Below are positions 1 through 29,307 of a DNA stretch of 29,533 nt, one piece after another (the stretch's first letter is position 1; each line of letters begins with the position of its first letter). Source of the DNA: an uncultured Candidatus Saccharibacteria bacterium (GTDB lineage Bacteria > Patescibacteriota > Minisyncoccia > Phycocordibacterales > UBA1006); contig CAYRNU010000001.1 of assembly GCA_964425795.1 (NCBI GenBank), positions 1-29,533 of the forward strand, written 5' to 3'. Below the pieces are notes generated by a model that made no database searches, was not told where the DNA came from, and saw only the letters and a list, made by a program, of their open reading frames with translations. A program made the position numbers and the translations under genes.

Positions 1-3000
1 AGCGGTGTCAGGAGTTCCAGGGTTGAAAGCAACAACTTGACGGTACATTGAATCTGGATCTTCTGGCTTCTTAACCCAGTCACCAATCGATAAACCTTTA
101 AATGTTCCCGCAATACCTGTAACAACGTTTGTGTTTGCTGTCCATGTAGCTGAGAAAGACTTATTGTTAAATGGTCTAGTCGTAATCAACTCATCAGTGG
201 CTGAATCATTGAAGATCATGATTGAATCATTATCTACAGCGATAACACGGAAACGACCGTTGTTATTAGACTTAAATGTAGTTCCACCGATGATTACATA
301 ATCATCTACGGCAACACCAGAATCTAAGAAACGTGGTGATTCACCATCTTGGCGAGAGATACGAACCATACCGTTAAAACCTAATTTTTGTAGGCGGTAA
401 CGAGTAGGTACTAATCCATCTTTAATAACAGATGCTCCAACTGAAGCTTCAGCGAAGTCAGCGCCAGCAGATGCAAAAGTAAATGAGTTAGCATTTAGCA
501 CTGTAATAGGTCCGTAAGCACTATCAACTAAATTATTAGAATCTTGTAAGTTAACAGTATCACCAGAGTTCATAAAGTGAGGAGCTGAAGCAACAACTGT
601 AACAACGTTAGACGTACGGCTGATAGCTGTAACATTTACACGTGTTGAGTGTGCTAAATTCCACTTGATGATTGGAGTAGGGCAGATTTGAACTGTATTA
701 CCAGAACCAACTGCAGTAGCAGACATAGCTTTACCGTATGGATTTACTACATCGAAGTAGTTAGATGCATCGTTTACAGCTATGATTGGAAGACCAGCAA
801 CTAAGCCATCTCCACCATTACGTACTTTATTTCCTTGAGCCCAAGATAATGTATTACCGAAAGCAAATACTTGATCACCAGCACGAACGTCACTTAAAGT
901 AACAGATCCACCAGAGTGTGTCCAACGCCATACGAAACCAGCAGGACGACCATAAGATCCAGAAACATCAGTGATAGCAAATGTAGTTGCAGCAATAATG
1001 TTTGTAACCTTAGGGTTATAGTTATATTCAATAATATTAGATGACGGGTTTGTAACAGTAATAGAGTCACTAGTAATTAAACGACTCAAGCGTTTAGCGC
1101 CAGCATCATTTTCAACCTTGATATAATCACCAACGTTAAATGTATCTGGGAAAGCTGGAACCTTCATTAATAAATAGTTACCAGAAACATCAGAGGCTAC
1201 TTCAGATTCACCGAAGATATAAGCTTGAGCTTTATTAGCGTTACCACCAATAACTTCAATTGCTCCTGCAGAACCAAGTTGTTTAGACGTGATCTGTACA
1301 TTACGGCGATCGTTAGAGATGCGAACATCAGAAACGATAGGTAATTGAGAAAGAGCCTTTTGAGTAAGGTGATGATGAATATTAGTTACAGAAACTGGGA
1401 TCAATTTGAATTGTTCACCAAGATCTGAGATGTCATCGTTTGGTGCAGTATCCATCGCATAAACAGATGGAGCAACTCCGTTAAGAGTAGACACGCCTTT
1501 TAATGTAAAGTTAGGATTAACGTTAGCAAACGCCTTAACCCAGTTAACTCCATCATATAAGTTAATATGATCGCGTGTAGCCAATGAAGTAGGATTGTGT
1601 CCATAACCTAAAGCAGTAGAGTTACCACCGTAAGTATAGAACTCCTGTCTTGTAGCTCTATCAATTGTAAGTGCTGGATTTCCAACAGGAGATATTGCAA
1701 TGATTTGACCAGCGTTAACTGTATCAGCAATCGTTTGAACGTCGTTTCCTACAAGAGGGAAGAATACTACGTTACCAGCATTAGTAATTAACTCTGCAGC
1801 TGACAATGAACCTTGTTGAGTAGTTGATACTGCAAAGCCAGAAGTATTAGCGGTTGCGTCAGGTACGTTACCATCTGCCACATTAGTGATAGTGATTACT
1901 GGACCAACATTAGAAGCATTAAAAAATAAATCTGGGTTAATAACCGCAACAGTAGCAGCAGCTACAGTAGTTGCATTATCTCCATAATTGACCCCAGGGA
2001 CACGAATAGAACGGTTTGCACCATGGAATGGTTCTTGCGTTCCGTCATCACCTACGTCATACCAGACAGCTACAGATCCATTCTCATCATTGATGATAAA
2101 GTATTTACCGTCAAGAGTGTTATCCGCAGTACCGTTTACTGAACGAGCAGTTGTAAATCCAGAAGTACCGTTAGAAGGAACTGGAAGAGATCCGTTAACT
2201 AAGTTAGTTAAAGTGATTTGGTTGCCAATTACTCCAACAGAGTAAGCATTATCAAGTGAAATAACTGAACCAGTCTTAGTAGCAACTACAGAAGCAGAAT
2301 CACCTGTCACTACAGTGGCAACCTTAATAGCACGGTTAGCGCCATGAGATGGAGGTGGATTACCTGCATTATTCAAGTCATACCAAACAGCAACTGTTCC
2401 TTGAGAATCGTTTACGATAAAGTATGTTTGATCTAACGAATCAGCAACATCAGCCACAGTATCGATAGTGTATTGAGTAGCAGTTCCGATTACATCAGCT
2501 ACCGCAGTAACTTGAGTAATCTCTGGAGCACCAGGAGATGTAGCACTTGCTGTTGGATTGAAAACACGTACTGTGAATCCAGACTTAGCTTCAACACGGA
2601 ATTGACCCATGTTAGCGTTTGAAACCCCAGAGCCATCAGAGATAGATAAAACATCTCCAACTTGTACGGGTGCCAAGTTACCAGCAGAGAAAGTGTAATC
2701 GTAATAATTTCCTGTAGATACAGATCCATTAGGGAAATTAGTAGAAGTATCAGGGTATGGACCTTGTACTGCAATAGTGTAACCAGATGCGATAGCAGCT
2801 GCACGAGCAGGACCAGAACCAAAGAAGTATGAATACATACTGTATGAAGGTGAGTTCAAGAATGTAGTCGTAGGAGCTTGATCAACAGATGTTGGATACT
2901 CGATAGAGAAACGTAATTTCTCACCGTTAGGTCCGTACTGTTGAGATCTAACGATCATCTTTCCGCCAGAACCAGCTACGCCACCAGTTGAATACCAATT

Positions 3001-6000
3001 GCGAGCTCTCATCCAAACAGCATAATCGCTGAATTCAGTATTGTTGATATCTTTACCCCAAACTGTTAAGTTATTGAAGTCGATACCTGGTTCATTATCT
3101 TGGTCAAATGCAGAGAACTCTGTTGTAGTTGGCAAGAATGTTCCGCCACCAGATCCAGAGTTTACGCGACCAGTACGAGCCATGCGAACGTCGATAGTTT
3201 TAATTGTAGCGTCTTTGTCCATTACGACAACGATGCTATCTTCTGAAGAAATGTTAACTGGACGAACTAATTCAACTTCGTCTCCAGTTACCCAGTCAAG
3301 TTCAGTACGAGCAACACCTTGTTGAGTTCCAACTTGGTCAGATGCAGGTTTAGCTTTGATTGTGCGGAATTGACCACGGTTTCCACCGCGTGTTCCAGAA
3401 ACATAATCATCAAAAGCTGATTGAGATAATTCAGTAGCTTGTAAAGTCTCACTGTAAGTTCCAGTAAATGGAGGAGCATCTGGAACAGCATTAGCTGTTA
3501 AAGAACCCTTAGCGTCAGTATAAGTGTGACGACCCAAGAATACGTTTGTTCCTACTGGAGCTGTACGTTTAAACAGACCCACTAAAGACTTATCAGAGAT
3601 GCGTGTAGCTACGTGAGGTGGGTTACCAAACTGAGCAGTTGCAGTTTCAGCAAAGATAACTGAAGCGTTAGCAATTGAAACCGGAACAGCGATACTTCCA
3701 CCCTTTTCAGTAGTAGAAGTAATCTTAATAGAATTAGATTTATAAATAGTAGCTAAAACACCAGCAACATCTTTATTTAAAGAGTCAACAACGCCTGTGA
3801 TCGGTTCAGCAGGAGGATTGTCAAGGTATGAACCGCGCCAGATTTGAGGGAAACCATCTGTCTCGAAAGCTTTAATATCTAAAGAATCAGAGATAGTGAT
3901 GCCAGCTTCAGGAACAACTCCAACATTATCAACGTCTACGTAAGTGTCTACGCCTTGTGATGTGTGTCCGCCTTTAGCTTTAATTTTGAATAATCCAGAG
4001 TTTGCAGCAGATACCCAACCAGCCGTTCTTTGAACGATGTAGATATAATCACCTGGTTTTAATGCAGCAAAAGCATCAGCAGTAGCAGACAAGATTCTCA
4101 TCGTGCTTGCACTTGGATTGCTGATTGTAATTGTAGATCCAATTAATAGAGGCACCGCAACTTGGTTACATACAGTAGAGTCAACTACTAGAACCATTTC
4201 AGCAGGGCGACCAGAAGCATCAGAAGCTAAATTATAAGTTCCTGTTGTAGTTGCAGCAGAGATATTGAATCCCTTAGCATCTTCAACACCAGCAGAGAAA
4301 TTATCACCTGGCAATACATCCGTAAGGATACGTAAGTTACCAGTTTGACGATTTAATTCAAATTGGGCTGTTTGACCAGCACTCTCTAGAGGTAGATTAG
4401 GGAACCATTTATTTAATAGAGTTCCACCACTTACAACGATAGAGCTATCAGCTCCTTCTTTGTTAGAGCGGATAATCATAGTTTGAGATGGAGTAGCTTC
4501 TGCAGTTAATCCAGCGAACTTGTCGTTGAATACTGCAACCCAGTCATCAATAGTTAATGAAGCAAATGAAGATGCCCCAACGAAGTCAGATAAAGCAAAA
4601 GCTCTATCTTGAGCTGGAGTACCATCAACAGCAATAATGATATTGCTCGTTGTGTTGATATTCCATTGAGCAAATGAAGCTGTTTTTAATTCAGCTGATT
4701 TACCTTTCTCGTGAAGACGTGTACTGTTTTGATATAGAGCAATATAGCTGAATTCATCAGTAGGGAACTTCAAGATAGTGTTTGCATATAAAGTTTCGTC
4801 ATCAGTATCTCTCAATGGAGCAACTTGGATGATCTCAGCGTCATGGGCAACTGGATATAAAAGAATATTAGCTGACTTATTTACGAAGCGAGCTTTGAAT
4901 AAAGTAGAGTTAGCATTTAAAGCAACAATAACTTCAGATAACGTAGCCGCAGAGATATTTAAGAACTGGCTAGTACTAAAGAAGATCGTTTCTTCCTCAC
5001 CGTCAACGATAACACGCAAGAATGAACCATCTTTCAGTGTGAATGGGCCTTCTTCTACGTTAATAGCTTGTGGACGTGGAACAGGATAGTTAGCAAGTTG
5101 TAAGAACTCTTCAGTTCCTTCAGCATTAGATAAAAGCTTATCTACTGACTGACCAGCGAATGAAGGCTGGAATCCAGATCCATCATCGATATAAAGAATA
5201 GAAGGGTCACCAACTTTAACTGGCTCAGTGATAACTGCAGAAGCAACTTGATTAGAGTCATCAGGGTCAGAGACTCCGATAACTGAAGCAATGATACTTG
5301 GAGCTGTACCGCGAGCAAGAGTGATTGAATATGATTTAAGTCTGTTTCTTAATTCAACATCTGTCTCGATATCGCGACCAGAAGAGAATGAAGAAGTATT
5401 TGTAACAGCAGCGCCAGTAAATGGAACTACGTCGAAAGCAGTAATAGTGTTAATTCCAGCATTACCTAAGCTACCAGCTACTAAAGCGATAACCTCAACA
5501 CCCTTAACAACGTCTTCACCAGAAGGAATAACAGCATCTCTTAAAGTGACGTATTGCACCTCAGGGTTCTGATTATTCGCAGGGATCTTAACTACCGTGC
5601 CGGCAGCAATCAATCGATCTGGTTCACCCTGGGAATCAATAACGATATCAGAAATTAAATGATCCTTCTGTAAAGCAGAAGCAAGCGTAATTTCAGAGTA
5701 TGTTGGGAAAACAGTGATAGAAGTATAGTTGATTGGACCTTCAAATGATTGAGTTCCACGACCAATATAAAGAGTTCCAGTAGCTGACCAACCTGTAGTG
5801 TTATTTACATACAGCTTAGTTTGTCCAGCAATAGGGGCAGGCTTAATAACGTAAAGACCAGTTGAGCGCTTAGTAATGTTTGAATTAAGGATGTTAACAA
5901 GACCAGAAGCTTTAATAGCTGCACGGCGTGTTAATCCAAAGTCACCAGCTTTAGCATCAAGATCGTTATTCTTGATAGCATCAATGTTTAGAAGTTCTAA

Positions 6001-6165
6001 AACATTAAGGATAGCAGTATTGTTCTCAAAGTCATTAGCAGCCGCAGCTTCTAACAATGTAAGGAGGACAGATCCTGCGTTAAGGTCATTAAGTGGAGTC
6101 TCCGCAATAATCTTACGGATCATGTCACCTAGAATTTGATTGAAACTCTTAATTTGTATAGCCAT
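1..6165 (-). CDS. Giant baseplate J-like (wedge) protein with long beta-rich extension; 3'-truncated by window edge (>2055 aa)
   Basis: ATG at 6165 (MAIQIKSFNQILGDMIRKIIAETPLNDLNAGSV...). No stop found in this frame: read continuously over 1-2100 and translated or spot-checked elsewhere. Baseplate-J motifs GSLGNAGINTIT and GRDIETDVELRNRLKSYSITLARGT at about 5300-5480. Missing from the ORF track, presumably because there is no stop in the window. Confidence 0.88.
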   Translation of the reverse strand, partial: MAIQIKSFNQILGDMIRKIIAETPLNDLNAGSVLLTLLEAAAANDFENNTAILNVLELLNIDAIKNNDLDAKAGDFGLTRRAAIKASGLVNILNSNITKRSTGLYVIKPAPIAGQTKLYVNNTTGWSATGTLYIGRGTQSFEGPINYTSITVFPTYSEITLASALQKDHLISDIVIDSQGEPDRLIAAGTVVKIPANNQNPEVQYVTLRDAVIPSGEDVVKGVEVIALVAGSLGNAGINTITAFDVVPFTGAAVTNTSSFSSGRDIETDVELRNRLKSYSITLARGTAPSIIASVIGVSDPDDSNQVASAVITEPVKVGDPSILYIDDGSGFQPSFAGQSVDKLLSNAEGTEEFLQLANYPVPRPQAINVEEGPFTLKDGSFLRVIVDGEEETIFFSTSQFLNISAATLSEVIVALNANSTLFKARFVNKSANILLYPVAHDAEIIQVAPLRDTDDETLYANTILKFPTDEFSYIALYQNSTRLHEKGKSAELKTASFAQWNINTTSNIIIAVDGTPAQDRAFALSDFVGASSFASLTIDDWVAVFNDKFAGLTAEATPSQTMIIRSNKEGADSSIVVSGGTLLNKWFPNLPLESAGQTAQFELNRQTGNLRILTDVLPGDNFSAGVEDAKGFNISAATTTGTYNLASDASGRPAEMVLVVDSTVCNQVAVPLLIGSTITISNPSASTMRILSATADAFAALKPGDYIYIVQRTAGWVSAANSGLFKIKAKGGHTSQGVDTYVDVDNVGVVPEAGITISDSLDIKAFETDGFPQIWRGSYLDNPPAEPITGVVDSLNKDVAGVLATIYKSNSIKITSTTEKGGSIAVPVSIANASVIFAETATAQFGNPPHVATRISDKSLVGLFKRTAPVGTNVFLGRHTYTDAKGSLTANAVPDAPPFTGTYSETLQATELSQSAFDDYVSGTRGGNRGQFRTIKAKPASDQVGTQQGVARTELDWVTGDEVELVRPVNISSEDSIVVVMDKDATIKTIDVRMARTGRVNSGSGGGTFLPTTTEFSAFDQDNEPGIDFNNLTVWGKDINNTEFSDYAVWMRARNWYSTGGVAGSGGKMIVRSQQYGPNGEKLRFSIEYPTSVDQAPTTTFLNSPSYSMYSYFFGSGPARAAAIASGYTIAVQGPYPDTSTNFPNGSVSTGNYYDYTFSAGNLAPVQVGDVLSISDGSGVSNANMGQFRVEAKSGFTVRVFNPTASATSPGAPEITQVTAVADVIGTATQYTIDTVADVADSLDQTYFIVNDSQGTVAVWYDLNNAGNPPPSHGANRAIKVATVVTGDSASVVATKTGSVISLDNAYSVGVIGNQITLTNLVNGSLPVPSNGTSGFTTARSVNGTADNTLDGKYFIINDENGSVAVWYDVGDDGTQEPFHGANRSIRVPGVNYGDNATTVAAATVAVINPDLFFNASNVGPVITITNVADGNVPDATANTSGFAVSTTQQGSLSAAELITNAGNVVFFPLVGNDVQTIADTVNAGQIIAISPVGNPALTIDRATRQEFYTYGGNSTALGYGHNPTSLATRDHINLYDGVNWVKAFANVNPNFTLKGVSTLNGVAPSVYAMDTAPNDDISDLGEQFKLIPVSVTNIHHHLTQKALSQLPIVSDVRISNDRRNVQITSKQLGSAGAIEVIGGNANKAQAYIFGESEVASDVSGNYLLMKVPAFPDTFNVGDYIKVENDAGAKRLSRLITSDSITVTNPSSNIIEYNYNPKVTNIIAATTFAITDVSGSYGRPAGFVWRWTHSGGSVTLSDVRAGDQVFAFGNTLSWAQGNKVRNGGDGLVAGLPIIAVNDASNYFDVVNPYGKAMSATAVGSGNTVQICPTPIIKWNLAHSTRVNVTAISRTSNVVTVVASAPHFMNSGDTVNLQDSNNLVDSAYGPITVLNANSFTFASAGADFAEASVGASVIKDGLVPTRYRLQKLGFNGMVRISRQDGESPRFLDSGVAVDDYVIIGGTTFKSNNNGRFRVIAVDNDSIMIFNDSATDELITTRPFNNKSFSATWTANTNVVTGIAGTFKGLSIGDWVKKPEDPDSMYRQVVAFNPGTPDTA
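1840..2480 (-). repeat. Two tandem ~107-aa protein repeats inside the giant baseplate protein
   Basis: TYFIVNDSQGTVAVWYDLNNAGNPPPSHGANRAIKV vs KYFIINDENGSVAVWYDVGDDGTQEPFHGANRSIRV; the YFI codons lie 321 nt apart (2416-2424 and 2095-2103). Boundaries approximate. Confidence 0.85.
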
Positions 6166-16542: not shown

Positions 16543-17106
16543 TTACGATAAGTCTGTATCGCCAGAGTATGATGAATCGAAAGATTCGTCATCAGCTAAG
16601 ATACCAACAAAAGAAAGACGGTCAACTAAGATACCACGTTTATTCAACGAAGCACTCTTACGTGTGAAACGGCAATCTTTGATTGTGATGAACTCAACAG
16701 AGTCTGTCACAGTAGCAGTTCCACCAGCAGCAGTTGCGCCAGTTTGTTCTTTTTGGAAAACAGATAAATCCCATGTTTGAGATAACAAAATGTTTCCTGG
16801 GTTGATTTCGTTAGCGCCGTTTCCACCAGTAGTGTAATCGACTTTACCTAAACCGTTACCACCTGTGTTCGTTCCAGGCATATTGTTTGTCTTAGCAATT
16901 CCAGTGTAACGAACAACTGATAATTCACCAGCTACTGAGTAGTTTACTGGTTCGTTAGTTACTGCTTCATATCGACCCATTGTTTCGATAGGAATAGTAT
17001 CTACGGCTACTTGATATGATACGTCAGCTGCATAAGCAAACGTCTTACCGCCTACTTTAATCTTAGCATTCGCACCTGTGATAAATGAGGGCTTTTTACC
17101 TGCCAT
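16543..17106 (-). CDS. Tail tube protein paralog 1 (probable start MAGKKPS at 17106)
   Basis: First gene after the sheath; FITGANAKIKVGGKTFAYAADVSY...NEPVNYSVAGELSVVRY; RBS AAGGA before ATG 17106. Confidence 0.82.
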   Translation of the reverse strand: MAGKKPSFITGANAKIKVGGKTFAYAADVSYQVAVDTIPIETMGRYEAVTNEPVNYSVAGELSVVRYTGIAKTNNMPGTNTGGNGLGKVDYTTGGNGANEINPGNILLSQTWDLSVFQKEQTGATAAGGTATVTDSVEFITIKDCRFTRKSASLNKRGILVDRLSFVGILADDESFDSSYSGDTDLS

Positions 17107-17259: not shown

Positions 17260-19479
17260 TTAAGCTGTTTGAGTTGCGCGTTGCAGAGTGATATCTGCTA
17301 ACACGAAATCGATACCTTCAACTAATTTCACAACTACTGCGATATTAACAGTGTTACCGTTAATTTGAACAACTAATTGTTTGAAACCGTTTTTAGCATC
17401 AGAAGTAGAAACAGTAATACCTTGAGCTAAGTAAGTTGCAAGGATAGCCTCACAAGTACTCTTAATCTCAGCAGCAGAAACTGTGTTCTTCAATCCAACA
17501 TAGATATTCTCTAATTGGTTACGGAAGTCGTAAGCCAATACGTCTGAAGCGTACAACACGTTACCACGGTTGTTAACCCAGTTTCCATCCTTATTGTAAG
17601 TTGTATTATCAACTACAAGGCGGAATCCACCAGTTTGAGGAGCTTCCCAGAACGTTAAAGCGTTCGCGATAGCATCGTCGTACTGTGTATCTGGATCAAA
17701 ATCAACAACGATATCTTGCTCAGCAGTGCTCATTGGTTGAGCCGTTTGACGGATACCTGACATGTTGAAGTATTTGAATGTCATTGGGTTACCAATTGGT
17801 GAACCACCGCGTGCACCAGCAAGTAATGCTGCGCCAGCCCATGGTTGGAACCACTTGATGTTACCTTCAGAATCTGTTTGACGAATGTCTTGGATTACCA
17901 TTTGGATGCGAGCAGCAGCCATTGTAGCAATCTTAACTTTAGCGTCAGAATAAGATCCTTTGAAAGATAAGTAACCTTGTCTTTCAGATTTTTTCTTAGT
18001 AGTAGACATCAAGCTTAAGTGAGTTTTCACGGCTTGGTGGATACCATCGATAGTATATGTAGAAGCAGCATCAGTCAATTGGTCAGCAATATCATCAGCG
18101 GCATCGCGTGAGAATAAAGGAACAACAGAGTTAACACGGAACTTCTCGAACTTACTTAATGCAGTAACGATATCAGCAGAAGCAGTAGCTCCTTTTGAAC
18201 CGCCAGATAAGTAAATAGCATTTGGCACGCCTTGTTGATCTGGAAGACCAACTTTCTTAACGCTTGATTGGCTCACTAGAGGAATTAATTCAACTTGTGA
18301 AGACAATGCGAAGAAGTCAGCAACTTTTTTAGCATCTTGTTTGATGCGAGCAGGCATAGCACCTGAAGCAGCATGAAATGCACCAGTTGCAGCAACTTGG
18401 TCTAATACTGAAAGAGACAATTGTCCTAACAATACTGAACCAGCTTGTGCGATCCAACCTGGAAGTGTGTTTACGTAATCAACTAAAGCTTGAACATTTG
18501 GGAAGTCAGCTTTATTTAATACATAAGAAGTAGGTGTTGCGCCAGTTTGTGAAAGAGTAACTGAAGAAGCAGACACCGCTACAGTTGCAGCAGTTGCGCC
18601 ACCAGTTGAATCACGACCCATCATCAACACGATTTCGCCACCAACTGTTTGACTCTCTTCAAGAGTAGTAACAGGGTTACGAACAGTTAATGTAGCCATT
18701 GGTTCAGAAGCAGCAGCAGTCCAACCAGCAACGTGGCCGATTGATACAAGTGCTGTACCACCAGTGATTTCCATTGAACGACCAGAACCATTTTGATTCA
18801 AGTTAGATCCAGCAGCCATTGCAATTTCAATTGATGTTCCATCGGCTGATACTTCCCAGCTAGAACCCATTGCAGTTTGAATAGCAGCAGCTAAAGCAGC
18901 AGCGTTCGCGTACGAAGCAGCAGCGATAGTTGAAGTAACAGAAGCACCACCGTTTTGACGAGCGATGATTGTGTCGTTAGATGCAGAAGTAATTACTACT
19001 GGGTAAGTTGGAGCTGATCCAGTTACCGCAGCAGGAGTTTCTGCCGTTAATACGTTTTTAAAAGTAATTTGATTTCCTGACGTTCCCCATTGACGAGCAC
19101 GAAGACGACCGAAATCAGTTGCACCAGCTTCGATTGAAGCAAGTTCAGCACGAATAGATGCGTTTGTTTTGTAGATGTAAATCGCTTGCGCTCCACCTGG
19201 GATTGCACCGTCTGCTCCAGGAGCAAACAAGAAGTTACATGCGTCTACTAAATTACCGCGTCCATATTTGTCACGGATTTGAGCCATTTGATCTGGACCA
19301 AATACGTTATTAGCGATGTTTGTTTCTGCAGAGCCAGGAGCTCCTGCATCCGCTTCTCCAAATACTGCAACGATACCAGTTGGAGAAAGAGGAAATCCTC
19401 CGCCAAGGTCGATTGTAGTCTTAGAGTAAGCACCTGGTTTGAAAATGGTTGCACCATTAAAGCTTACATTAATTGCCAT
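17260..19479 (-). CDS. Contractile tail sheath protein
   Basis: 739 aa; N-terminal FNGATIFKPGAYS...GIVAVFGEADAGAPG; C-terminal sheath domain LYASDVLAYDFRNQLE...VVVKLVEGIDFVLADITL; RBS AGGAG. Confidence 0.92.
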   Translation of the reverse strand: MAINVSFNGATIFKPGAYSKTTIDLGGGFPLSPTGIVAVFGEADAGAPGSAETNIANNVFGPDQMAQIRDKYGRGNLVDACNFLFAPGADGAIPGGAQAIYIYKTNASIRAELASIEAGATDFGRLRARQWGTSGNQITFKNVLTAETPAAVTGSAPTYPVVITSASNDTIIARQNGGASVTSTIAAASYANAAALAAAIQTAMGSSWEVSADGTSIEIAMAAGSNLNQNGSGRSMEITGGTALVSIGHVAGWTAAASEPMATLTVRNPVTTLEESQTVGGEIVLMMGRDSTGGATAATVAVSASSVTLSQTGATPTSYVLNKADFPNVQALVDYVNTLPGWIAQAGSVLLGQLSLSVLDQVAATGAFHAASGAMPARIKQDAKKVADFFALSSQVELIPLVSQSSVKKVGLPDQQGVPNAIYLSGGSKGATASADIVTALSKFEKFRVNSVVPLFSRDAADDIADQLTDAASTYTIDGIHQAVKTHLSLMSTTKKKSERQGYLSFKGSYSDAKVKIATMAAARIQMVIQDIRQTDSEGNIKWFQPWAGAALLAGARGGSPIGNPMTFKYFNMSGIRQTAQPMSTAEQDIVVDFDPDTQYDDAIANALTFWEAPQTGGFRLVVDNTTYNKDGNWVNNRGNVLYASDVLAYDFRNQLENIYVGLKNTVSAAEIKSTCEAILATYLAQGITVSTSDAKNGFKQLVVQINGNTVNIAVVVKLVEGIDFVLADITLQRATQTA

Positions 19480-23250: not shown

Positions 23251-24075
23251 TTAAGTGACAACAGGATCAACGATCTTCTCGCCAGACCCCACCATGAAAT
23301 CACGGCGCACTAGTATTTGTTGAGGTAACCTACGGGCTGTTTTTACTCCACCCACTAATTCCTGTGTTATTCTAAGTTCTCTAAGTGACTGTAAAACTAC
23401 ATATACTGGGTTAGCAAAGTAAGCCCAGCCTATAACTTCACCACGCTCAAGAGCTGCATCATAAGATGGTTCTTTTCCAGGGATCCATTCAATACCGCCA
23501 TCAGCTGTAACATTAAAGTCTACGCCAGGCATATAGAACTTTTGAACCCCATCAGTTATTGATGAGGCATACTCTACTTTCTGAACTGGATATCTCAGGT
23601 CTTGAATTCCACCTGGACGAGGTTCATAACCTTTTAGTTCCCATAAGCGAACAGTAAAGTCAGGCATTTCAAGTTTATCATAAGTGTTGAAGTCAGCTTG
23701 AGTGCCATCTGGATATTCAGTAGGAAATGTAACAACTGCTGTTCCTGTTTCCCAAACACCGTGAGCTTCGAAAGTTTTCTCAATTGAGTTACCTTGGAAA
23801 ATACCATAGCACTCTTTGCTCTCGTAATAGATCAAACCAGAATCATCACAAAATGGACAATCAGGTTGATGAGCTTGAAATGTAGTGCTTTCTACGTTCA
23901 TGCAAGGAATTGCTTTGTGATGGATGAAGCGAATACCACGTTGATTTAATAGCTGATCAAAGCTAATACCTTTAATCGAAGGATCTGGTAAGTACATCGG
24001 CATTGGCGACGGACTTGTCGTTGGCGACGTTGGTGGTGGGTTCGGAAACTGTTTATTTGGCTTATCCATACTCAT
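23251..24075 (-). CDS. Head-closure (stopper)-type virion protein, Herelleviridae-like
   Basis: LLNQRGIRFIHHKAIPC...PDCPFCDDSGLIY resembles the RGI..LW..A..CPC...DCP.C.G.G motif of Twort-like head-completion proteins. Start moved to MSMDK (24075), 9 nt after GGTATAAT. Confidence 0.65.
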   Translation of the reverse strand: MSMDKPNKQFPNPPPTSPTTSPSPMPMYLPDPSIKGISFDQLLNQRGIRFIHHKAIPCMNVESTTFQAHQPDCPFCDDSGLIYYESKECYGIFQGNSIEKTFEAHGVWETGTAVVTFPTEYPDGTQADFNTYDKLEMPDFTVRLWELKGYEPRPGGIQDLRYPVQKVEYASSITDGVQKFYMPGVDFNVTADGGIEWIPGKEPSYDAALERGEVIGWAYFANPVYVVLQSLRELRITQELVGGVKTARRLPQQILVRRDFMVGSGEKIVDPVVT

Positions 24076-24084
24076 AATGACTTT

Positions 24085-24138
24085 ATTATACCTGATTAGC
24101 GATTGAAATGGGTCTAGGCTCAATTATCCTGTTATAAT
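24085..24138. promoter_or_regulatory. Divergent promoter pair (GGTATAAT minus, 24085-24092; TGTTATAAT plus, 24130-24138)
   Basis: Back-to-back -10 elements at the strand switch. Confidence 0.55.
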
Positions 24139-24970: not shown

Positions 24971-25007
24971 AGAGATACCAACCTTGATCCTAACATAGGA
25001 GGCGAAC

Positions 25008-25259
25008 ATGACTAAACTCAGTCAACTTACACAGTTCGCTTCTCTGTGCTCAAATAATATTCACAAAGGAAGTACTTATGGAAAAGCGTCAACCACGCCA
25101 GGTCCAAATTCAATTCAATTCAGCACAAGAGGCTATCAATCTCTATATGCAAATCGAATTAAAGCACTTTCTGGCCAGATTACTATATTCCCACTATACT
25201 GGCAGAGTATAATAGTAGGTAATGAGCCACAAGACTTGGGAACCACACGAAATCACTAA
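25008..25259 (+). CDS. Hypothetical ORF (uncertain; overlaps two motif-family ORFs)
   Basis: Strong GGAGG RBS, but it fully overlaps 25078-25212 in another frame. Confidence 0.3.
   Translation: MTKLSQLTQFASLCSNNIHKGSTYGKASTTPGPNSIQFSTRGYQSLYANRIKALSGQITIFPLYWQSIIVGNEPQDLGTTRNH
25078..25212 (+). CDS. Micro-protein, helix-motif family (ELKHFLARLLYSHY)
   Basis: MEKRQPRQVQIQFNSAQEAINLYMQIELKHFLARLLYSHYTGRV, 44 aa; RBS AAGGAAG. Confidence 0.6.
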   Translation: MEKRQPRQVQIQFNSAQEAINLYMQIELKHFLARLLYSHYTGRV

Positions 25260-25401
25260 GACAGATAGTAAGATGAAATTCTTCTATTTCCTGCGTGATT
25301 TAGGTATCAAGTCAGCTCAAGAGCCTGCTCAAATTACTTGGAAACGTCACATAGAAATATTAACTCATCTCTATAACGGAGCTTGGCATGAGGTTTCATA
25401 G
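25222..25401 (+). CDS. Micro-protein, helix-motif family (KFFYFLRDLGIKSA)
   Basis: 59 aa from ATG 25222 (or 42 aa from 25273); TATAAT at 25208-25213. Confidence 0.7.
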   Translation: MSHKTWEPHEITKTDSKMKFFYFLRDLGIKSAQEPAQITWKRHIEILTHLYNGAWHEVS

Positions 25402-25636
25402 ACTCACTGCCGACCAAATTAGTTCTGTACATAGACTCTATAATTTTCTAAGAAAGATGAAAGTTATTGGGATAGTTAATACAGTGACTGAGCAAGTAAG
25501 GTATACAGAGAGTGGTAAGCCGCTGCGCTACAATCTTAAATTTGTTTCTTATGATGGTTCAATGAAGGGTAAGCTTACTCCTGAGGAAAAGCTATCTGTT
25601 TATTTTAAATCACTTAGTCTTGTATTCGACGGTTAA
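25388..25636 (+). CDS. Micro-protein, helix-motif family (RLYNFLRKMKVIG)
   Basis: 82 aa, overlaps the previous ORF; possible weak hub-like segment after the motif. Confidence 0.7.
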   Translation: MRFHRLTADQISSVHRLYNFLRKMKVIGIVNTVTEQVRYTESGKPLRYNLKFVSYDGSMKGKLTPEEKLSVYFKSLSLVFDG

Positions 25637-25777
25637 GCGACAGCCTTCCATCCAACGCGCACCAAGATGTACGCGATCAAATCCAATACCTAATTTCATC
25701 AGTAGATAAAATAGAGGATACTTAGCGAACGGCTCACCGTTCTCGTCATCGAAGTCATATTGCCAAGTGATGCCCAT
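25610..25777 (-). CDS. Micro-protein, helix-motif family (PLFYLLMKLGIG)
   Basis: MGITWQYDFDDENGEPFAKYPLFYLLMKLGIGFDRVHLGARWMEGCRLTVEYKTK, 55 aa; TAATG-coupled to the upstream ORF. Confidence 0.65.
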   Translation of the reverse strand: MGITWQYDFDDENGEPFAKYPLFYLLMKLGIGFDRVHLGARWMEGCRLTVEYKTK

Positions 25778-25950
25778 TAGGCAGACTCCGTTATCCAGTG
25801 CGGTTTAACGTAAATTTCTTTTCCTGTCTTAGGAAGAGTGTACTTAATAGAACCCATGATACCTTCTGTTGCGCTAGCTTTAATAAGCTTCATCAACATC
25901 ATTTGCATTTTAGATCTTGGATCCATTTTTCTAGTGTAATATCTACTCAT
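25777..25950 (-). CDS. Micro-protein, helix-motif family (KMQMMLMKLIK)
   Basis: MSRYYTRKMDPRSKMQMMLMKLIKASATEG..., 57 aa; ATGA-coupled to the upstream ORF. Confidence 0.6.
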   Translation of the reverse strand: MSRYYTRKMDPRSKMQMMLMKLIKASATEGIMGSIKYTLPKTGKEIYVKPHWITESA

Positions 25951-26135
25951 ATTCTACTATCCGCCACCATTACGTGTATTCGTCCGTCATTGCCGAACCA
26001 GTAGATTGTACCGTCTTTATAAAATCCACCTTCGATACCATTGCTGATCGTCTTATATTTCAATAGCTTCATGGCAAGAAACATTACGTTGCGAACAGGG
26101 AATCTAGGATAGATAGTCCAGTCTGGTCGATTCAC
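25947..26135 (-). CDS. Micro-protein, helix-motif family (RNVMFLAMKLLK)
   Basis: 62 aa; ATGA overlaps on both sides. Confidence 0.6.
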   Translation of the reverse strand: MNRPDWTIYPRFPVRNVMFLAMKLLKYKTISNGIEGGFYKDGTIYWFGNDGRIHVMVADSRI

Positions 26136-26365
26136 GGATAATTAGTAAGCGTTCTGAAGACGCTCTCCCACGGGAATTTAACAAATCGCTTATCTAGTCT
26201 ACATAAAACATATAAGAGTTTTTGGCGATGCAAGTCGCCTTCGATCATGTGAAGGTATGCTTTAAAAACAGAACCTTTTTCTAAGTCTTGGATAGGCGTA
26301 GATGAAACCATCCCCGCTATCATCGCGTCAAGAATTTCTTTGTACGTCTTTGGTGAAGAGCTCAC
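26132..26365 (-). CDS. Micro-protein: baseplate-J N-terminal mimic + helix motif
   Basis: GTG start 26365 after GGAAGG. KTYKEILDAMIAGMVSSTPIQDLEKGSV matches KSFNQILGDMIRKIIAETPLNDLNAGSV at 12/28, ungapped; then QKLLYVLCRLD. Confidence 0.75.
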   Translation of the reverse strand: MSSSPKTYKEILDAMIAGMVSSTPIQDLEKGSVFKAYLHMIEGDLHRQKLLYVLCRLDKRFVKFPWESVFRTLTNYP

Positions 26366-26409
26366 GAATATACCTTCCAACTGTAACGAACGCGACGTAC
26401 CAAGCTAAA

Positions 26410-26643
26410 CTAAGTATTAGACCCATCAGAGCCATCGCTATCAACAGTCTCGATAGGGATTGCTGTAATACCAGCATCAAAGCTTGCGTCTTTTGCATAA
26501 GCGACGTCTTGTCCATTTATCTTTAACCTCAAAAGTCTTCCTCTTAAGATGGAAGGCTTGTTATTTATTATAGCGCTTTTAATCCCCAATTTCTTGAGGA
26601 AGAATAAGAACTTTCTGTATTCCCAAGTGTCCCATTGAATCAT
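26410..26643 (-). CDS. Micro-protein: helix motif + tail-tube N-terminal mimic
   Basis: RKFLFFLKKLGIKSA, then KPSILRGRLLRLKINGQDVAYAKDASFDAGITAIPIET, 16/38 identical and ungapped to tube paralog 1. Confidence 0.8.
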   Translation of the reverse strand: MIQWDTWEYRKFLFFLKKLGIKSAIINNKPSILRGRLLRLKINGQDVAYAKDASFDAGITAIPIETVDSDGSDGSNT

Positions 26644-26822
26644 AATTTTGGTCCTGGCATTCTTCGCTTAAGTGTATATCCTCGTGGAAAACCTGCAGAT
26701 TTAATATCTAACTTTCTCAATAAAAACTTTAAATCCCTAATAGATTGTTGTTCTACAGTGAGTCCACCATAGTTACCTGGTACTCGCAGCGTAACCCCAC
26801 CAAATATTCTAGTTATAGCCAT
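26640..26822 (-). CDS. Micro-protein: tail-sheath N-terminal mimic + helix motif
   Basis: SD GGAG then ATG 26822. MAITRIFGGVTLRVPGNY vs sheath MAINVSFNGATIFKPGAY, 9/18 identical; then RDLKFLLRKLDIKSA. Confidence 0.78.
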   Translation of the reverse strand: MAITRIFGGVTLRVPGNYGGLTVEQQSIRDLKFLLRKLDIKSAGFPRGYTLKRRMPGPKL

Positions 26823-26892
26823 ACGTTCTCCGTCCCGCATTGAGAATTCGGCGGGGGCCCCTCAGATGCAATATACTGAGTTAGAGCATAGT

Positions 26893-27129
26893 TCATTTCT
26901 TCAACTTACTTGGATCAAATGTTGCTTTGCTTAGTGTCTTCTCTAAAGATTCAAATGCAGCGGCACCCATGAAAACTTGATCTGGTTTTCCGCCACTGTA
27001 CATTCCAACTTCAAGTGCTTCCATCAAATCAAGAATCATATCCTCACTAGAGAATTCTGCACTCTTAATTCCGAGCTTCTTCACGAAGTGTTTAAGTTTT
27101 CTGTATTGCTTTTTACTCTCAATGTTCAT
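26893..27129 (-). CDS. Micro-protein: helix motif + possible major-capsid-like segment
   Basis: RKLKHFVKKLGIKSA, then ...MYSGGKPDQVFMGAAAFESLEKTL; TATAAT 6 nt before the ATG. Confidence 0.7.
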   Translation of the reverse strand: MNIESKKQYRKLKHFVKKLGIKSAEFSSEDMILDLMEALEVGMYSGGKPDQVFMGAAAFESLEKTLSKATFDPSKLKK

Positions 27130-27141
27130 GAGAATATTATA

Positions 27142-27438
27142 CTAATTGCCGACGCCAGGGTTACGAGCTGTATACTGAGATTCCATGCGGCGAGCTGGCT
27201 TAACAACCTGCTTGATGTCTACGCGACCACCCTTTGGTACATCTCCGCCACCGAAGTCTTTCAGTGAACCTTTCTGTCCGGTATCCTTTGGCAAGTCACC
27301 GTTAAGATTGTGTTGAGTGCGAGCTGCGAAAGTAGCACTACCTGGTTTATAGTCAGACTTCGGTTGTTTCAAACCGTCACCAGTAGCTTTATGAAGCTCC
27401 CATTGTCCGCACTTATTAAACGTTAGATATTCGCTCAT
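27142..27438 (-). CDS. Small basic Gly-rich hypothetical protein (N-terminal LTFNKCGQWELHKA)
   Basis: 98 aa; TATAAT at 27445-27450, 6 nt before the ATG; lacks the family helix motif. Confidence 0.7.
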   Translation of the reverse strand: MSEYLTFNKCGQWELHKATGDGLKQPKSDYKPGSATFAARTQHNLNGDLPKDTGQKGSLKDFGGGDVPKGGRVDIKQVVKPARRMESQYTARNPGVGN

Positions 27439-27566
27439 GTAATGATTATATCATAGTCTGCATGGTACGCGGTCAAGAACGTCAAGTAGGCGTAAGGTCC
27501 AATCACTTTTAATTGAAGTAATAATAAAGCAAGGCTCTTCCTTATCTCGCGTTCCTCTTGTGTCAT
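27435..27566 (-). CDS. Micro-protein, helix-motif family (KSLALLLLQLKVIG)
   Basis: MTQEEREIRKSLALLLLQLKVIGPYAYLTFLTAYHADYDIIIT, 43 aa; ATGA overlap with 27438. Confidence 0.55.
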   Translation of the reverse strand: MTQEEREIRKSLALLLLQLKVIGPYAYLTFLTAYHADYDIIIT

Positions 27567-27577
27567 ACGTTCATTCG

Positions 27578-27688
27578 CTACACGAACTCACGTGCCTCAT
27601 CTTGGTGAACATACAAAGCTTGTTTGATTCCGAGCTTCTCTAAGAAGCTCGTTAATCTGAACGTGTTTGCCATACCCCACGGCTTCAT
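27578..27688 (-). CDS. Micro-protein, helix-motif family (RLTSFLEKLGIKQA)
   Basis: MKPWGMANTFRLTSFLEKLGIKQALYVHQDEAREFV, 36 aa; SD GGAG. Confidence 0.7.
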   Translation of the reverse strand: MKPWGMANTFRLTSFLEKLGIKQALYVHQDEAREFV

Positions 27689-27698
27689 CGTGTCTCCG

Positions 27699-27917
27699 TC
27701 ATGTTAATTCCAATTGCCAAGTTCGCCCGCTCGGCGAACTCGTCATGCTCCGGTACTCCGTTAGACGATTGTAATAAATTACATCGAGTTTCGTCAACAC
27801 TCCGATTAAGCTCTTGATGGATGCAGCCTCTTCCGGCTTATACCACCTTGACGTGTACCTCGATGCTACTACGTCCAGTCTTATATTAGATGTGGTGACT
27901 CTATGTGTGAGACTCAT
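27699..27917 (-). CDS. Micro-protein, helix-motif family (KSLIGVLTKLDVI), possible LysM-like fragment
   Basis: 72 aa; ATGA-coupled; N-terminal HRVTTSNIRLDVVASRY. Confidence 0.6.
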   Translation of the reverse strand: MSLTHRVTTSNIRLDVVASRYTSRWYKPEEAASIKSLIGVLTKLDVIYYNRLTEYRSMTSSPSGRTWQLELT

Positions 27918-28027
27918 GCAGACCTCTGTTTGACGCCGGTGGGCACGCCCAGCTTTTCCAGGAAATAGAACAACTTGTAGGTTTTATGTTTGCCCTCCAT
28001 GAGGGTCCAGAGTAGTTGACCGTTCAT
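27914..28027 (-). CDS. Micro-protein, helix-motif family (KLFYFLEKLGV)
   Basis: MNGQLLWTLMEGKHKTYKLFYFLEKLGVPTGVKQRSA, 37 aa; ATGA overlaps on both sides. Confidence 0.7.
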   Translation of the reverse strand: MNGQLLWTLMEGKHKTYKLFYFLEKLGVPTGVKQRSA

Positions 28028-28182
28028 GGTGTTGGTCTCTTTGGGGAGGAGATGTTGATGTAGAGCATGGCAGTAGACCTTTTGATTAATCCCATTTTGT
28101 ATAGCTGAAGGATGAGACGGCCTGTTGGGTTTATCTCGATTATGTATTGAGAGCCTGGGACTGAGTGGTAGCCTGGTTTCAT
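28024..28182 (-). CDS. Micro-protein, helix-motif family (RLILQLYKMGLIK)
   Basis: 52 aa from ATG 28182 after GAGGA; ATGA overlaps on both sides. Confidence 0.6.
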   Translation of the reverse strand: MKPGYHSVPGSQYIIEINPTGRLILQLYKMGLIKRSTAMLYINISSPKRPTP

Positions 28183-28334
28183 TTGTCCTCTAGTGGTAGG
28201 GTGTTCCACCCAAGTGTAGGGGTTCCAGTGTAGGAAATGAGTTGGATTACCTTAAGTTTATTTAGGAAATTATGTAGCTTGAATAGGGGAAGGTTGTCTT
28301 TTTTATATTCGAAGTGTCCGTGAGAGATTTCCAT
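28179..28334 (-). CDS. Micro-protein, helix-motif family (KLHNFLNKLKVI)
   Basis: MEISHGHFEYKKDNLPLFKLHNFLNKLKVIQLISY..., 51 aa; GGTATAAT 7 nt before the ATG. Confidence 0.65.
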   Translation of the reverse strand: MEISHGHFEYKKDNLPLFKLHNFLNKLKVIQLISYTGTPTLGWNTLPLEDK

Positions 28335-28388
28335 ATTTTATATTATACCAATAGGGGTACCGGGTTAAGGTTTGCCTATTAGGTTTAG

Positions 28389-28620
28389 AGGGTGGCGGGG
28401 CCTTTATTTAGGTTGGTAATTTGGATATAGGAGTCGGCAAAAGAATGCGATGAGAAATGTATGTTGAATGGTTAAGTGTGGGCGTGAGTCGCGATATGTG
28501 TGGCGGATGGTGGACCATTTTTTAATGCAGGTATCTTCGATTGATTGGTCCAGTGGAATATATATAAATGGTCTGAAAGGAGGAGTGCGCATGAAGAGTA
28601 TTGTACCAAGGGTGGCGGGG
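28389..28620. repeat. 12-bp GC-rich direct repeat AGGGTGGCGGGG (28389-28400, 28609-28620)
   Basis: Exact copies 220 nt apart in an otherwise AT-rich region. Confidence 0.7.
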
Positions 28621-28625
28621 GCCAC
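28404..28625 (-). CDS. Micro-protein, probable helix-motif family (FLIAFFCRLLYPNY); start uncertain
   Basis: C-terminus matches ORF 25078 (HFLARLLYSHY); alternative ATG at 28592. Confidence 0.4.
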   Translation of the reverse strand: MAPATLGTILFMRTPPFRPFIYIPLDQSIEDTCIKKWSTIRHTYRDSRPHLTIQHTFLIAFFCRLLYPNYQPK

Positions 28626-28719
28626 TTTATAGAAAAAGCTTATGTACAGAAAGAGTTGGCCGCGTGAGGCTCCCTGAAACTAGGGGTTCCCTTTTATGCT
28701 AAGGCTAGCGGGCGCCTAT

Positions 28720-28815
28720 TTCCTGAAGCTATAACATATCATAACGACGCAGCGCTGATGAAAAGCTTTGCATCGATATGAGATGATTCCTGAAACTAAC
28801 AATAAGTATAACGAC
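28720..28815 (+). promoter_or_regulatory. Two copies, 67 nt apart, of TTCCTGAARCTA-N9-ATAACGAC upstream of the first plus-strand gene
   Basis: 28721-28748 vs 28788-28815 match at 20/28; a third half-site CCTGAAACTA at 28673-28682. Confidence 0.5.
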
Positions 28816-28842
28816 AATAACAAAAATACTGGGAGGTATTGA

Positions 28843-29307
28843 ATGTCACAAGTTACACAAAAAGAAGCGGTATTCCAAGCGGTTTGCAATGTTACAGGTT
28901 TTAACGGCGAAGGCGTGTGTGAGATTACGTCTGAGCAACGCAAGCAAGTGAACGCGATCTTGTTTGAGGGTTTCAAGTCGGGCAAGATCCAAATCGAGAC
29001 GATGCCTGACGACGCTGCGCTTAAGGGATACGTGAGTGGATTGCAGTCGAATTGGTTACGCAAGGACACTCGCTTGAACGGTGGTATGAAGTATACAGCT
29101 AAGAACCCTGGTTCTCGCGCTGGTTCGTCTGACCCATCTCTGAAAGCGATGCGCGCTTTGTTGAGCACAGTTAAGACTGACGAAGAGCGTGCTGAGATCC
29201 AAGGCTTCATCGACCAACGCGTGTCTGAGTTATCGATCACTAAACAAGCTAAGACTGTTGACTTCTCTGCTCTACCTGCTGAGCTTGCTGCGAAGTTCAG
29301 CAAGTAA
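28843..29307 (+). CDS. Hypothetical protein (154 aa), first gene of the plus-strand (probably early) unit
   Basis: Strong SD GGGAGGT; biased codon usage typical of highly expressed genes; no family recognised. Confidence 0.85.
   Translation: MSQVTQKEAVFQAVCNVTGFNGEGVCEITSEQRKQVNAILFEGFKSGKIQIETMPDDAALKGYVSGLQSNWLRKDTRLNGGMKYTAKNPGSRAGSSDPSLKAMRALLSTVKTDEERAEIQGFIDQRVSELSITKQAKTVDFSALPAELAAKFSK

Follow-up and report, generated by a model that had tools for sequence, protein, structure and literature searches.

Micro-proteins of an uncultured wastewater phage that join copies of virion-protein N-termini to a shared helix

Several described systems involve proteins that share features with the proteins described here. 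In chaperone-usher pilus biogenesis, the chaperones PapD and FimC supply a look-alike of the N-terminal strand that the next pilin would donate, and this donor-strand complementation caps the acceptor site until polymerisation. The sheath initiators of the gp25/TssE type are small baseplate proteins that present sheath-like "handshake" strands to sheath subunits. The satellite SaPI1 encodes CpmB, a small protein carrying a short copy of an assembly-interface segment of a morphogenetic protein, by which it intervenes in assembly of the helper phage. The phage protein DSAD1 competes with the tail tube protein for the tube-sensing host defence DSR2 (PMC10981675, PMC11087589). The internal proteins of T4 share one short conserved capsid-targeting motif beside unrelated "cargo", and the hyperplastic regions of T4-type phages contain dense arrays of tiny, fast-evolving ORFs with their own promoter-like sites and strain-to-strain cassette replacement. 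Here, a stretch of 29,533 nucleotides (contig CAYRNU010000001.1 of assembly GCA_964425795.1, positions 1 to 29,533; hereafter the window) was analysed, in which four consecutive minus-strand ORFs at 26132-27129 had been proposed to be a miniature, collinear cassette of tagged virion-protein mimics. The window belongs to a roughly 175-kb myophage of wastewater and bioreactors, and its closest isolate, Myxococcus phage Mx1, is distant. The arrangement was found in no protein-family library or paper searched here.

The similarity of the four ORFs (hereafter minis) to virion proteins was examined first, and the observation made in the original prediction was confirmed and found to be stronger than had been shown. 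All four similarities are real and each is to the N-terminus of the real protein. In the ORF 26410-26643, residues 29-67 match tube residues 17-55 at 41% identity, with BLASTP E=2.6e-8 against the 18 large proteins of the window, and the tube is the top hit in the whole 587-kb assembly (E=9e-7). In the ORF 26132-26380, residues 11-43 match residues 6-38 of the >2055-aa Baseplate_J protein at 39% identity (E=1e-4). The BLAST match of the sheath mini is weak (E 0.017-0.5); however, an ungapped comparison in register from Met1, using the ATG at 26822, scored 42 against the sheath, whereas the next best unrelated N-terminus of the 616 compared (large proteins of the window plus ORFs of 60 aa or more of the relative G002) scored 13. 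Disappearance of the similarities under shuffling had been named beforehand as a refuting outcome, and 0 of 20000 shuffles reached 42. No capsid gene lies in the window, and the major capsid protein is known only from relatives; residues 20-77 of the ORF 26893-27129 match residues 12-69 of the major capsid protein of two related phages at 37-41% identity. Furthermore, profiles of the mini families searched against the proteome of a complete 175-kb relative gave capsid (E=2e-9), tube (E=7e-10) and J (E=1.5e-7) as top hits, and profiles built from real N-termini alone recovered the minis among all small ORFs of 24 loci. The other families of the cluster found no parent in the proteome of the complete relative.

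The organisation of the cluster is given below. The original prediction had also noted a promoter, SD sites and ATGA coupling. The ATGA overlap was found at 26640-26643, and GGAG or GGAAGG precedes the starts at 26822 and at GTG 26365, which are the likely true starts of the sheath and J minis. A simple sigma-70 promoter and terminator scan gave fewer sites than in shuffled sequence. The claim of the same order as in the real morphogenesis operon holds for sheath, tube and J only, as the capsid gene lies about 55 kb beyond J in the complete relative. The order match thus has a chance probability of about 1/6, and collinearity is statistically weak.

Features of the micro-protein cluster and of the parent genes in the window
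Position	Strand	Feature	Observations
27136..27144	-	TAGTATAAT promoter-like site	6 nt before the capsid-mini ATG; same motif before the orthologous gene in the relatives L003, L006 and L010; also precedes the genes starting at 24075, 15274, 28334 and 25222(+)
26893..27129	-	Capsid mini (78 aa)	Family helix at about residues 12-24, then a copy of major capsid protein residues 12-69; dN/dS 0.25-0.37; in L003, L006 and L010 the helix is instead inserted after capsid residue ~42
26850..26892	-	Non-coding element between the capsid mini and the next gene	CAGTATATT plus a GGGGCCCC palindrome; nearly invariant across lineages, one copy per genome, far better conserved than the flanking ORFs; inferred role: a promoter/operator or a 5' UTR
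26640..26822	-	Sheath mini (60 aa from the ATG at 26822; an upstream ATG at 26840 is less likely)	Sheath residues 1-24 in register, then the helix, then a truncated tube-like stub; dN/dS 0.25 for the pair L033-L034; replaced between the window and L035 (39% identity)
26410..26643	-	Tube mini (77 aa)	Remnant of the sheath arm, the helix, then a copy of about tube residues 1-43; start overlaps the stop of the sheath mini; dN/dS 0.00-0.17 for residues 2-50 and 0.9-1.7 for residues 51 to the end
26132..26365	-	Baseplate-J mini (77 aa from GTG 26365)	J residues 1-39 in register, then a variant helix (L..VL.RLD) and a conserved tail; dN/dS 0.16-0.22
25222..26135	.	Five further members of the helix family	25947-26135(-), 25777-25950(-), 25610-25777(-), 25388-25636(+), 25222-25401(+); each has orthologues in relatives; no parent found in the phage proteome
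27142..28334	-	Upstream part of the cluster	Conserved 98-aa protein without the helix (27142-27438) and five helix-family micro-ORFs (27435-27566, 27578-27688, 27699-27917, 27914-28027, 28179-28334)
17260..19479	-	Parent: tail sheath (739 aa)	N-terminal 24 residues are copied
16543..17106	-	Parent: tail tube (187 aa from the ATG at 17106)	Two tube-like paralogues at 15929-16522 and 15324-15920
1..6165	-	Parent: >2055-aa Baseplate_J fusion protein	Runs off the window; residues 1-39 are copied

The helix shared by the minis had been described as a tag added to each fragment, N-terminal in two and C-terminal in two. The motif, of the type hydrophobic-x-x-L-L-x-K-L-(G/K/N/D)-(I/V) within ORFs of 36-100 aa in the cluster upstream of the virion module, is present in the capsid, sheath and tube minis, whereas the J mini matches 9 of 10 positions and its orthologues carry L..FL.KLD. 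Of 26 matches to the motif expression in the 587-kb assembly, 12 fall within 3.1 kb of this cluster. Only a 24-nt stretch at 75-83% identity is shared at DNA level, so conservation is at protein level. In the best-conserved family member (25388-25636), AlphaFold2 placed the helix as the core of a beta-alpha-beta-beta-alpha domain (pLDDT 83.5), the only confident model, and the fused sheath/tube mini of L003 showed the same order of elements at pLDDT 53. Thus, the helix is not an appended label but is predicted to be the core helix of a small beta-alpha-beta-beta domain family with about 15 members here, of which about 10 carry no detectable virion-like cargo. The different positions of the helix come from one architecture of arm, helix and hairpin. 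A relative encodes sheath N-terminus, helix and tube N-terminus in one ORF, and the sheath and tube minis of the window are complementary, truncated tandem copies of it. We also asked whether the helix of the J mini is simply the second helix of J itself, but the segment is not significantly similar to J residues 40-90, as shuffles reached the score in 18-81% of trials. The C-terminus of the 97-aa protein upstream of the sheath (19539-19832) looks like the motif by eye, but the motif HMM does not rank it among its top 25 hits and it was treated as chance. Apparent extra motif ORFs at 5.7-7.2 kb of the complete relative are weak and partly overlap a real gene in another frame.

The possibility that the minis are a decaying remnant of a duplicated morphogenesis operon, suggested by the order sheath, tube, J and by the shortness of the fragments, was then checked. 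The cassette recurs, with turnover, in about 15 related contigs, and independent gene callers call the minis in five further contigs. The frames are open in every lineage although dS is saturated between lineages, and the chance of each frame being open is 0.003-0.014. Unsaturated pairs gave dN/dS of 0.16-0.39 for all four minis, against 0.08 for the neighbouring structural gene. None of the roughly 15 relatives covering this locus shows longer fragments or a second tail operon. Together with the start signals and the conserved promoter-like site, these results contradict the decay explanation, which is highly unlikely; the minis are real genes and not decay products.

The minis were also compared with known families. 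Pfam and PHROGs returned nothing for the micro-ORFs beyond a tube hit of E=0.26 covering positions 8-37 of 143 of the tube profile (phrog_3776-like), and Pfam returned nothing for distant relatives of the 25388-25636 family. The tube mini lacks the complete tube domain of about 140-200 aa. The J mini lacks the Baseplate_J domain (PF04865), which lies at residues 179-279 of the parent, as homology stops at J residue ~39. The sheath mini lacks the sheath core domains (phrog_279), and the capsid mini holds only residues ~1-75 of a 483-aa capsid protein and not the P and A domains of the HK97 fold. A search of the ESM Atlas by features gave nothing, and a megablast search against phage records gave no match. 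Fold searches of the family model in PDB, AFDB clusters, BFVD and Atlas gave no match with E<=0.001 or TM above 0.5; a LAGLIDADG-like resemblance (helix ending in G, then a hairpin; rank 2, E=0.63) was considered and dropped. The variable tail does not behave as a target of a diversity-generating retroelement, as no DNA repeat of it occurs in 25000-28400 and no reverse-transcriptase hit appeared among the larger proteins of the window scanned against Pfam or PHROGs. The sequence was found in bioreactor and wastewater sequencing runs, but the RNA-labelled runs are flagged as probably DNA and give no evidence on transcription.

The choice of parents is non-random. All detectable parents (four, plus a tube paralogue in L006) are polymerising virion proteins out of 231 ORFs of 110 aa or more in the complete relative, and all copies are N-terminal, running in register from Met1 or sitting directly behind the helix. 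The parent-like segments are constrained, as the conserved part of the tube mini includes the first tube-like strand, and the residues invariant among sheath minis, and those kept in the J minis, are those shared with the parents. One may argue that the micro-protein family has some other function and that the 5' ends of late genes were merely captured, for example by recombination at TAGTATAAT-type promoter-like motifs that lie near both the minis and some parents, and kept as ordinary strands of the small fold. The absence of virion-like cargo in most members and the occurrence of the helix family in scattered small ORFs elsewhere in the complete relative agree with such exaptation without mimicry, and purifying selection is equally expected if the copied segments are simply part of a folded protein. 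However, random capture would not be expected to yield only N-termini of polymerising virion proteins in four or five independent cases, and we regard this explanation as possible but doubtful.

The original prediction was therefore partly supported in its interpretation: the minis are real genes that mimic virion-protein N-termini, whereas the appended tag was not supported and the three proposed functions (decoy, dominant-negative inhibitor, adaptor) remain hypotheses. What the analysis has established is that the four ORFs are expressed-looking genes under purifying selection, belonging to a lineage-specific micro-protein family built on a small alpha/beta unit of strand, conserved helix and beta-hairpin as predicted, and that in these four members the strand or hairpin parts are homologous copies of the N-terminal 24-60 residues of the major capsid protein, sheath, tube and baseplate J; how they work, including any binding or expression, is inferred. 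In related solved virions, the N-terminal arms of these four polymerising proteins are the parts exchanged between neighbouring subunits, although for this phage the assignment rests on knowledge of other phages. A micro-protein displaying such an arm on a stable helix scaffold would compete for the site that normally receives the arm. Our preferred reading is that the minis cap the phage's own unassembled subunits and would thereby, in a manner resembling donor-strand complementation, restrain or time polymerisation of capsid, sheath, tube and wedge, being made together with the virion genes from TAGTATAAT-type promoters, as the motif is shared with structural genes. Functional arm mimicry of some kind is slightly more likely than not, but the phage's own subunits as target is only a tentative proposal. 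A complex prediction of tube plus tube mini scored 0.02 with both chains poorly folded, and it counts neither for nor against binding.

The evolutionary pattern of the minis does not fit easily with a conserved self-partner. The parents are almost invariant, with the tube 75-97% identical among the 120 best of 510 homologues and the sheath N-terminus near identical, whereas the minis differ by 40-70% between lineages. The sheath mini is swapped between strains that are otherwise 86-100% identical here, and the tail of the tube mini evolves at dN/dS of about 1, which hints at conflict and fits an external, fast-changing partner better. In addition, the relatives L010-L012 keep only the capsid mini and L016 has none detectable, so the function is dispensable. 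The fast divergence, the replacement of the sheath mini and the dN/dS of the tube-mini tail are typical of conflict genes and, with the resemblance of the cluster to a phage accessory or hyperplastic region, would agree with immune decoys that occupy or pre-empt host sensors of virion proteins without activating them. Bacterial sensors of capsid, tube and other core virion proteins are well documented (PMC13581612, PMC10981675). However, the minis hold only 24-60 N-terminal residues at about 40% identity to the parents, the sensors of the host are hypothetical here, and literature searches found no precedent for fragment decoys; the decoy explanation is thus possible but unlikely. The same pattern, and the identity of about 40% to the phage's own parents, could suggest dominant-negative fragments that poison the assembly of co-infecting relatives or satellites, and satellites are known to redirect helper assembly with scaffold-like mimics (SaPI CpmB). 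This idea is weakened because the parent arms and the parents themselves are nearly invariant across the clade, so that a poison aimed at relatives would hit the producer too, and no more distant competitor is known; we consider it very unlikely. Literature searches for dominant-negative virion fragments and on Mx1 also found no precedent.

In the boldest form of this view, which we hold only tentatively, the phage clade has evolved a dedicated set of "arm-mimic" micro-proteins, one small scaffold fold displaying the exchange arms of capsid, sheath, tube and baseplate proteins, either as a general capping-chaperone system for virion assembly or as decoys that blind host sensors, with hypervariable tails tracking the opponent. 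Many bacterial immune sensors are now known to recognise core virion proteins, and how large tailed phages prevent premature polymerisation of capsid, sheath and tube subunits is only partly understood. The minis, being 60-80 aa with natural variants and a natural fused form, offer compact, testable reagents for both questions. If they cap subunits, they would be a new class of assembly chaperone, and if they blind sensors, fragment decoys would be a new anti-defence principle. The case also shows that micro-ORFs left unnamed by routine annotation can be recognised by comparing them, in register, with the N-termini of the structural proteins of the same genome, a search that could be run on all phage genomes.

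The pilus chaperones are about 25-kDa Ig-fold proteins unrelated in sequence to the pilins, whereas the putative caps described here are 60-80-aa proteins carrying true homologous copies of the arms of four different virion proteins. The gp25-like proteins are conserved structural components with their own Pfam family, whereas the minis evolve fast, hit no Pfam or PHROG family and are dispensable in some relatives. CpmB is encoded by a satellite, copies the C-terminus of the scaffold and acts on the helper, whereas here the phage itself encodes copies of the N-termini of its own capsid, sheath, tube and baseplate proteins. DSAD1, the model for the decoy explanation, is a large protein and is not described as a fragment of the tube protein in the abstracts of those reports, whereas the minis are sequence copies of N-terminal fragments. 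The ORFs of the hyperplastic regions of T4-type phages are not known to be described as one paralogous family or as carrying copies of virion-protein N-termini. The T4 capsid-targeting motif is strictly N-terminal and is cleaved by the prohead protease, whereas the motif found here is an internal helix of a predicted folded domain and sits N-terminally, centrally or C-terminally.

The analysed DNA is the whole of one contig (C1) of a 587-kb assembly of 81 contigs. Phage genes were found only on C1, whereas the other 80 contigs (GC about 0.44 against 0.41) show no genes of this phage, and the window is therefore a lone phage fragment and probably a binning passenger in a small-genome bin. The minus strand encodes a myophage morphogenesis module consisting of a virion protein, a NUDIX-domain protein, an HNH/endonuclease VII gene, the tail sheath, the tail tube with two tube-like paralogues, a tape-measure-sized protein, baseplate proteins and a Baseplate_J fusion that runs off the window. 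The Baseplate_J domain lies at residues 179-279 of this fusion, which continues for at least 1700 more residues, and its version in a complete 175-kb relative is 2359 aa. Myxococcus phage Mx1 has a much larger NUDIX protein in a comparable position. In the relatives L005 and L010, an HNH-type gene sits instead just upstream of the virion gene, which suggests a mobile endonuclease. No phage record matched the window at DNA level, and the nearest isolate by sheath protein was Mx1 at 33% identity. The clade is common in wastewater and bioreactor data; the tube protein has 510 homologues, of which the 120 best listed are 75-97% identical, and several of these lie on contigs of 148-177 kb.

The region between 25.2 and 28.3 kb contains about 16 micro-ORFs of 36-98 aa, which are tightly packed and often overlap by ATGA. 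When the shared motif was searched as a regular expression, 26 matches were found in the whole 587-kb assembly and 12 of them fell in these 3.1 kb. At DNA level, the motif copies share only a 24-nt stretch at 75-83% identity, and thus the conservation is at protein level. Four of these ORFs (hereafter minis) match the N-termini of real virion proteins (their parents), and the resemblance noted in the original prediction was upheld. Residues 29-67 of the tube mini match tube residues 17-55 at 41% identity (E=2.6e-8), and this remained the top hit in the whole assembly. Residues 11-43 of the baseplate J mini match J residues 6-38 (E=1e-4). The similarity of the sheath mini was weak by BLAST, but in an ungapped comparison in register from Met1, it scored 42 against the real sheath, whereas the next best unrelated N-terminus of 616 scored 13 and none of 20000 shuffles reached 42; the J mini behaved the same way. 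The capsid gene is not in the window and was located in two long relatives, and the mini that had been called capsid-like matches residues 12-69 of its product. Profiles of the mini families hit capsid, tube and J as best matches in the proteome of the complete 175-kb relative (E=2e-9, 7e-10 and 1.5e-7, respectively), and conversely, profiles made only from real N-termini pulled the minis out of all small ORFs of 24 loci. The start signals favour ATG 26822 (GGAG upstream) for the sheath mini and GTG 26365 (GGAAGG upstream) for the J mini, and with these starts both the copies begin at residue 1 of their parents.

Coordinates of the features in the window
Feature	Coordinates	Strand	Remarks
Baseplate_J fusion protein	1-6165	-	>2055 aa, runs off the window
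Promoter-like site	15296-15304		upstream of ATG 15274
Tail tube	16543-17106	-	
Tail sheath	17260-19479	-	
HNH/endonuclease VII gene	20616-21026	-	inside the structural module
NUDIX-domain protein	21663-23192	-	509 aa, within the head-tail block
Virion protein	23251-24123	-	
Promoter-like site	24084-24092		upstream of ATG 24075 (virion protein)
Promoter-like site	25205-25214	+	upstream of ATG 25222
Best-conserved helix-bearing member	25388-25636	+	
Variable tail of the tube mini	26410-26490		C-terminal ~25 codons
Non-coding element	26850-26892	-	~43 nt, between the capsid mini's stop and the sheath mini
Promoter-like site	27136-27144		upstream of ATG 27129 (capsid mini)
Conserved protein heading the mini cassette	27142-27438	-	98 aa
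Blocks differing in a wastewater strain	27568-27705, 27980-28330, 28349-28631		first replaced by unrelated sequence, other two skipped
Gap between divergent genes	28335-28842		508 nt
Promoter-like site	28341-28349		upstream of ATG 28334
Divergently transcribed protein	28843-29307	+	154 aa

Eighteen viral contigs carry the neighbouring virion gene at 68-91% identity, and five further contigs were obtained by a protein look-up. Wherever the locus is covered in these relatives (numbered L), the same micro-ORF cluster is present. The closest relatives (L032-L036) have the same run of a conserved 98-102-aa protein, the capsid mini, the sheath mini (44 aa), the tube mini (74 aa), the J mini (78 aa) and the next family member. 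In L003, a single ORF encodes sheath N-terminus, helix and tube N-terminus, and the sheath and tube minis of the window both align to it along their length. They are therefore tandem duplicates that lost complementary ends, which explains why the shared helix, taken for a tag in the original prediction, looks C-terminal in one and N-terminal in the other. In L003, L006 and L010, the capsid mini has the helix inserted after capsid residue ~42, whereas in the window it lies in front. The L010-L012 lineage keeps only the capsid mini, and L016 has about 18 helix-bearing ORFs but no detectable mini. In a wastewater strain (sequencing run X4), three blocks of the upstream region differ while the flanks match, which shows cassette-wise turnover of the upstream micro-ORFs between close strains. 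The divergently transcribed 154-aa protein has three paralogues in the complete relative and shares a short ...(A)(K/R)NPG... motif with the 98-aa protein that heads the mini cassette, neither of them having a family assignment. The gap between the divergent genes has an unusually strong GC skew (+0.33 in the 28-29 kb bin) and gave no tRNA or Rfam hit.

Because dS is saturated between distant lineages, selection was measured in the closer pairs. The dN/dS for L033-L034 was 0.25 for the capsid mini, 0.25 for the sheath mini, 0.18 for the tube mini and 0.16 for the J mini. In the window-L035 pair, it was 0.37 for the capsid mini and 0.39 for the tube mini, whereas the sheath mini has been replaced. 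The neighbouring structural gene gave 0.08. The chance that frames of these lengths are open at random is 0.003-0.014 each. Thus, these are functional genes that evolve fast. None of the relatives showed longer fragments or a second tail operon, and the decay of a duplicated operon is considered very unlikely. Two features suggest more than relaxed constraint. First, the window and L035 are 100%, 86% and 87% identical in the flanking genes but only 39% identical in the sheath mini, which points to local replacement. Second, tube-mini residues 2-50 have dN/dS of 0.00-0.17, whereas the last ~25 residues have 0.9-1.7 in all four unsaturated pairs, albeit from few sites, and the corresponding part of the real tube is invariant. 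The extreme C-terminal acidic D-G-x-x end of this hypervariable tail is kept.

The nature of the shared motif was examined in the best-conserved helix-bearing member, which is predicted by AlphaFold2 (pLDDT 83.5) to fold into strand, helix, strand, strand and helix, with the motif forming the first helix and the turn into the next strand. On this prediction, the motif is the core of a small domain and not a free label, contrary to its original description as a tag. The fused L003 mini gave the same order of elements (hairpin, helix, hairpin), but at a pLDDT of 53, which is too low to rely on. No matching fold or family was found in the libraries searched. The family has 75 representative clusters in 1.84 billion proteins, and all but two are small stand-alone proteins. 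About ten family members have no detectable parent in the phage proteome, and motif-like small ORFs also occur elsewhere in the complete relative. The possibility that the minis are captured fragments without mimicry is tentative, though ranked only slightly below the leading reading.

The sequence TAGTATAAT or GGTATAAT stands 6-22 nt before the ATGs of both micro-ORFs and virion genes, and it is conserved before the capsid mini in L003, L006 and L010. Several of these sites would give leaderless or near-leaderless mRNAs, and this is probably the phage's own promoter type. In addition, the non-coding element between the capsid and sheath minis contains CAGTATATT and a GGGGCCCC palindrome, the latter following the core CTAACTCAGTATATTGCATCTG. 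This element is nearly invariant in at least 10 related loci whose flanking ORFs are only 30-60% identical, is single-copy per genome, and is possibly a promoter with an operator or a structured 5' UTR. These features suggest regulated transcription, possibly together with the virion genes, which is inferred from sequence only. The RNA-labelled runs that hold the sequence are flagged as probably DNA.

These results together showed that the minis are selected chimeras of a family scaffold with homologous copies of four N-termini, whereas their mode of action is inferred, and the original interpretation was supported in part. In solved contractile tails and HK97-type capsids of other phages, N-terminal arms are exchanged between subunits, as in the sheath handshake, the inter-ring contacts of the tube, the gp6-type core bundle and the capsid N-arm. 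By analogy, a displayed arm copy should compete for the acceptor of the arm. Capping of the phage's own subunits is the reading ranked first, although only tentatively. It fits co-location and a shared promoter motif with the virion genes but fits poorly with the contrast between nearly invariant parents and fast, mosaic minis, and the one complex prediction gave no verdict. The conflict readings fit that contrast. However, published Avs sensors bind core folds rather than terminal extensions (PMC13581612), and the possibility of decoys for host sensors is doubtful and ranked below both capping and fragment capture. Interference with rival phages or satellites is unlikely, as a poison aimed at relatives would also hit the producer because the arms are nearly invariant across the clade. 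The remainder of the likelihood is left to explanations other than these.

The genomic pattern is solid, and no Pfam or PHROG family, solved or predicted fold, or paper was found that describes phage micro-proteins carrying in-register copies of the N-termini of the phage's own capsid, sheath, tube and baseplate proteins. The closest analogies are functional only, and these are the donor-strand-complementing chaperones, the gp25-type sheath initiators, the satellite scaffold mimic CpmB and the DSR2 inhibitor DSAD1.
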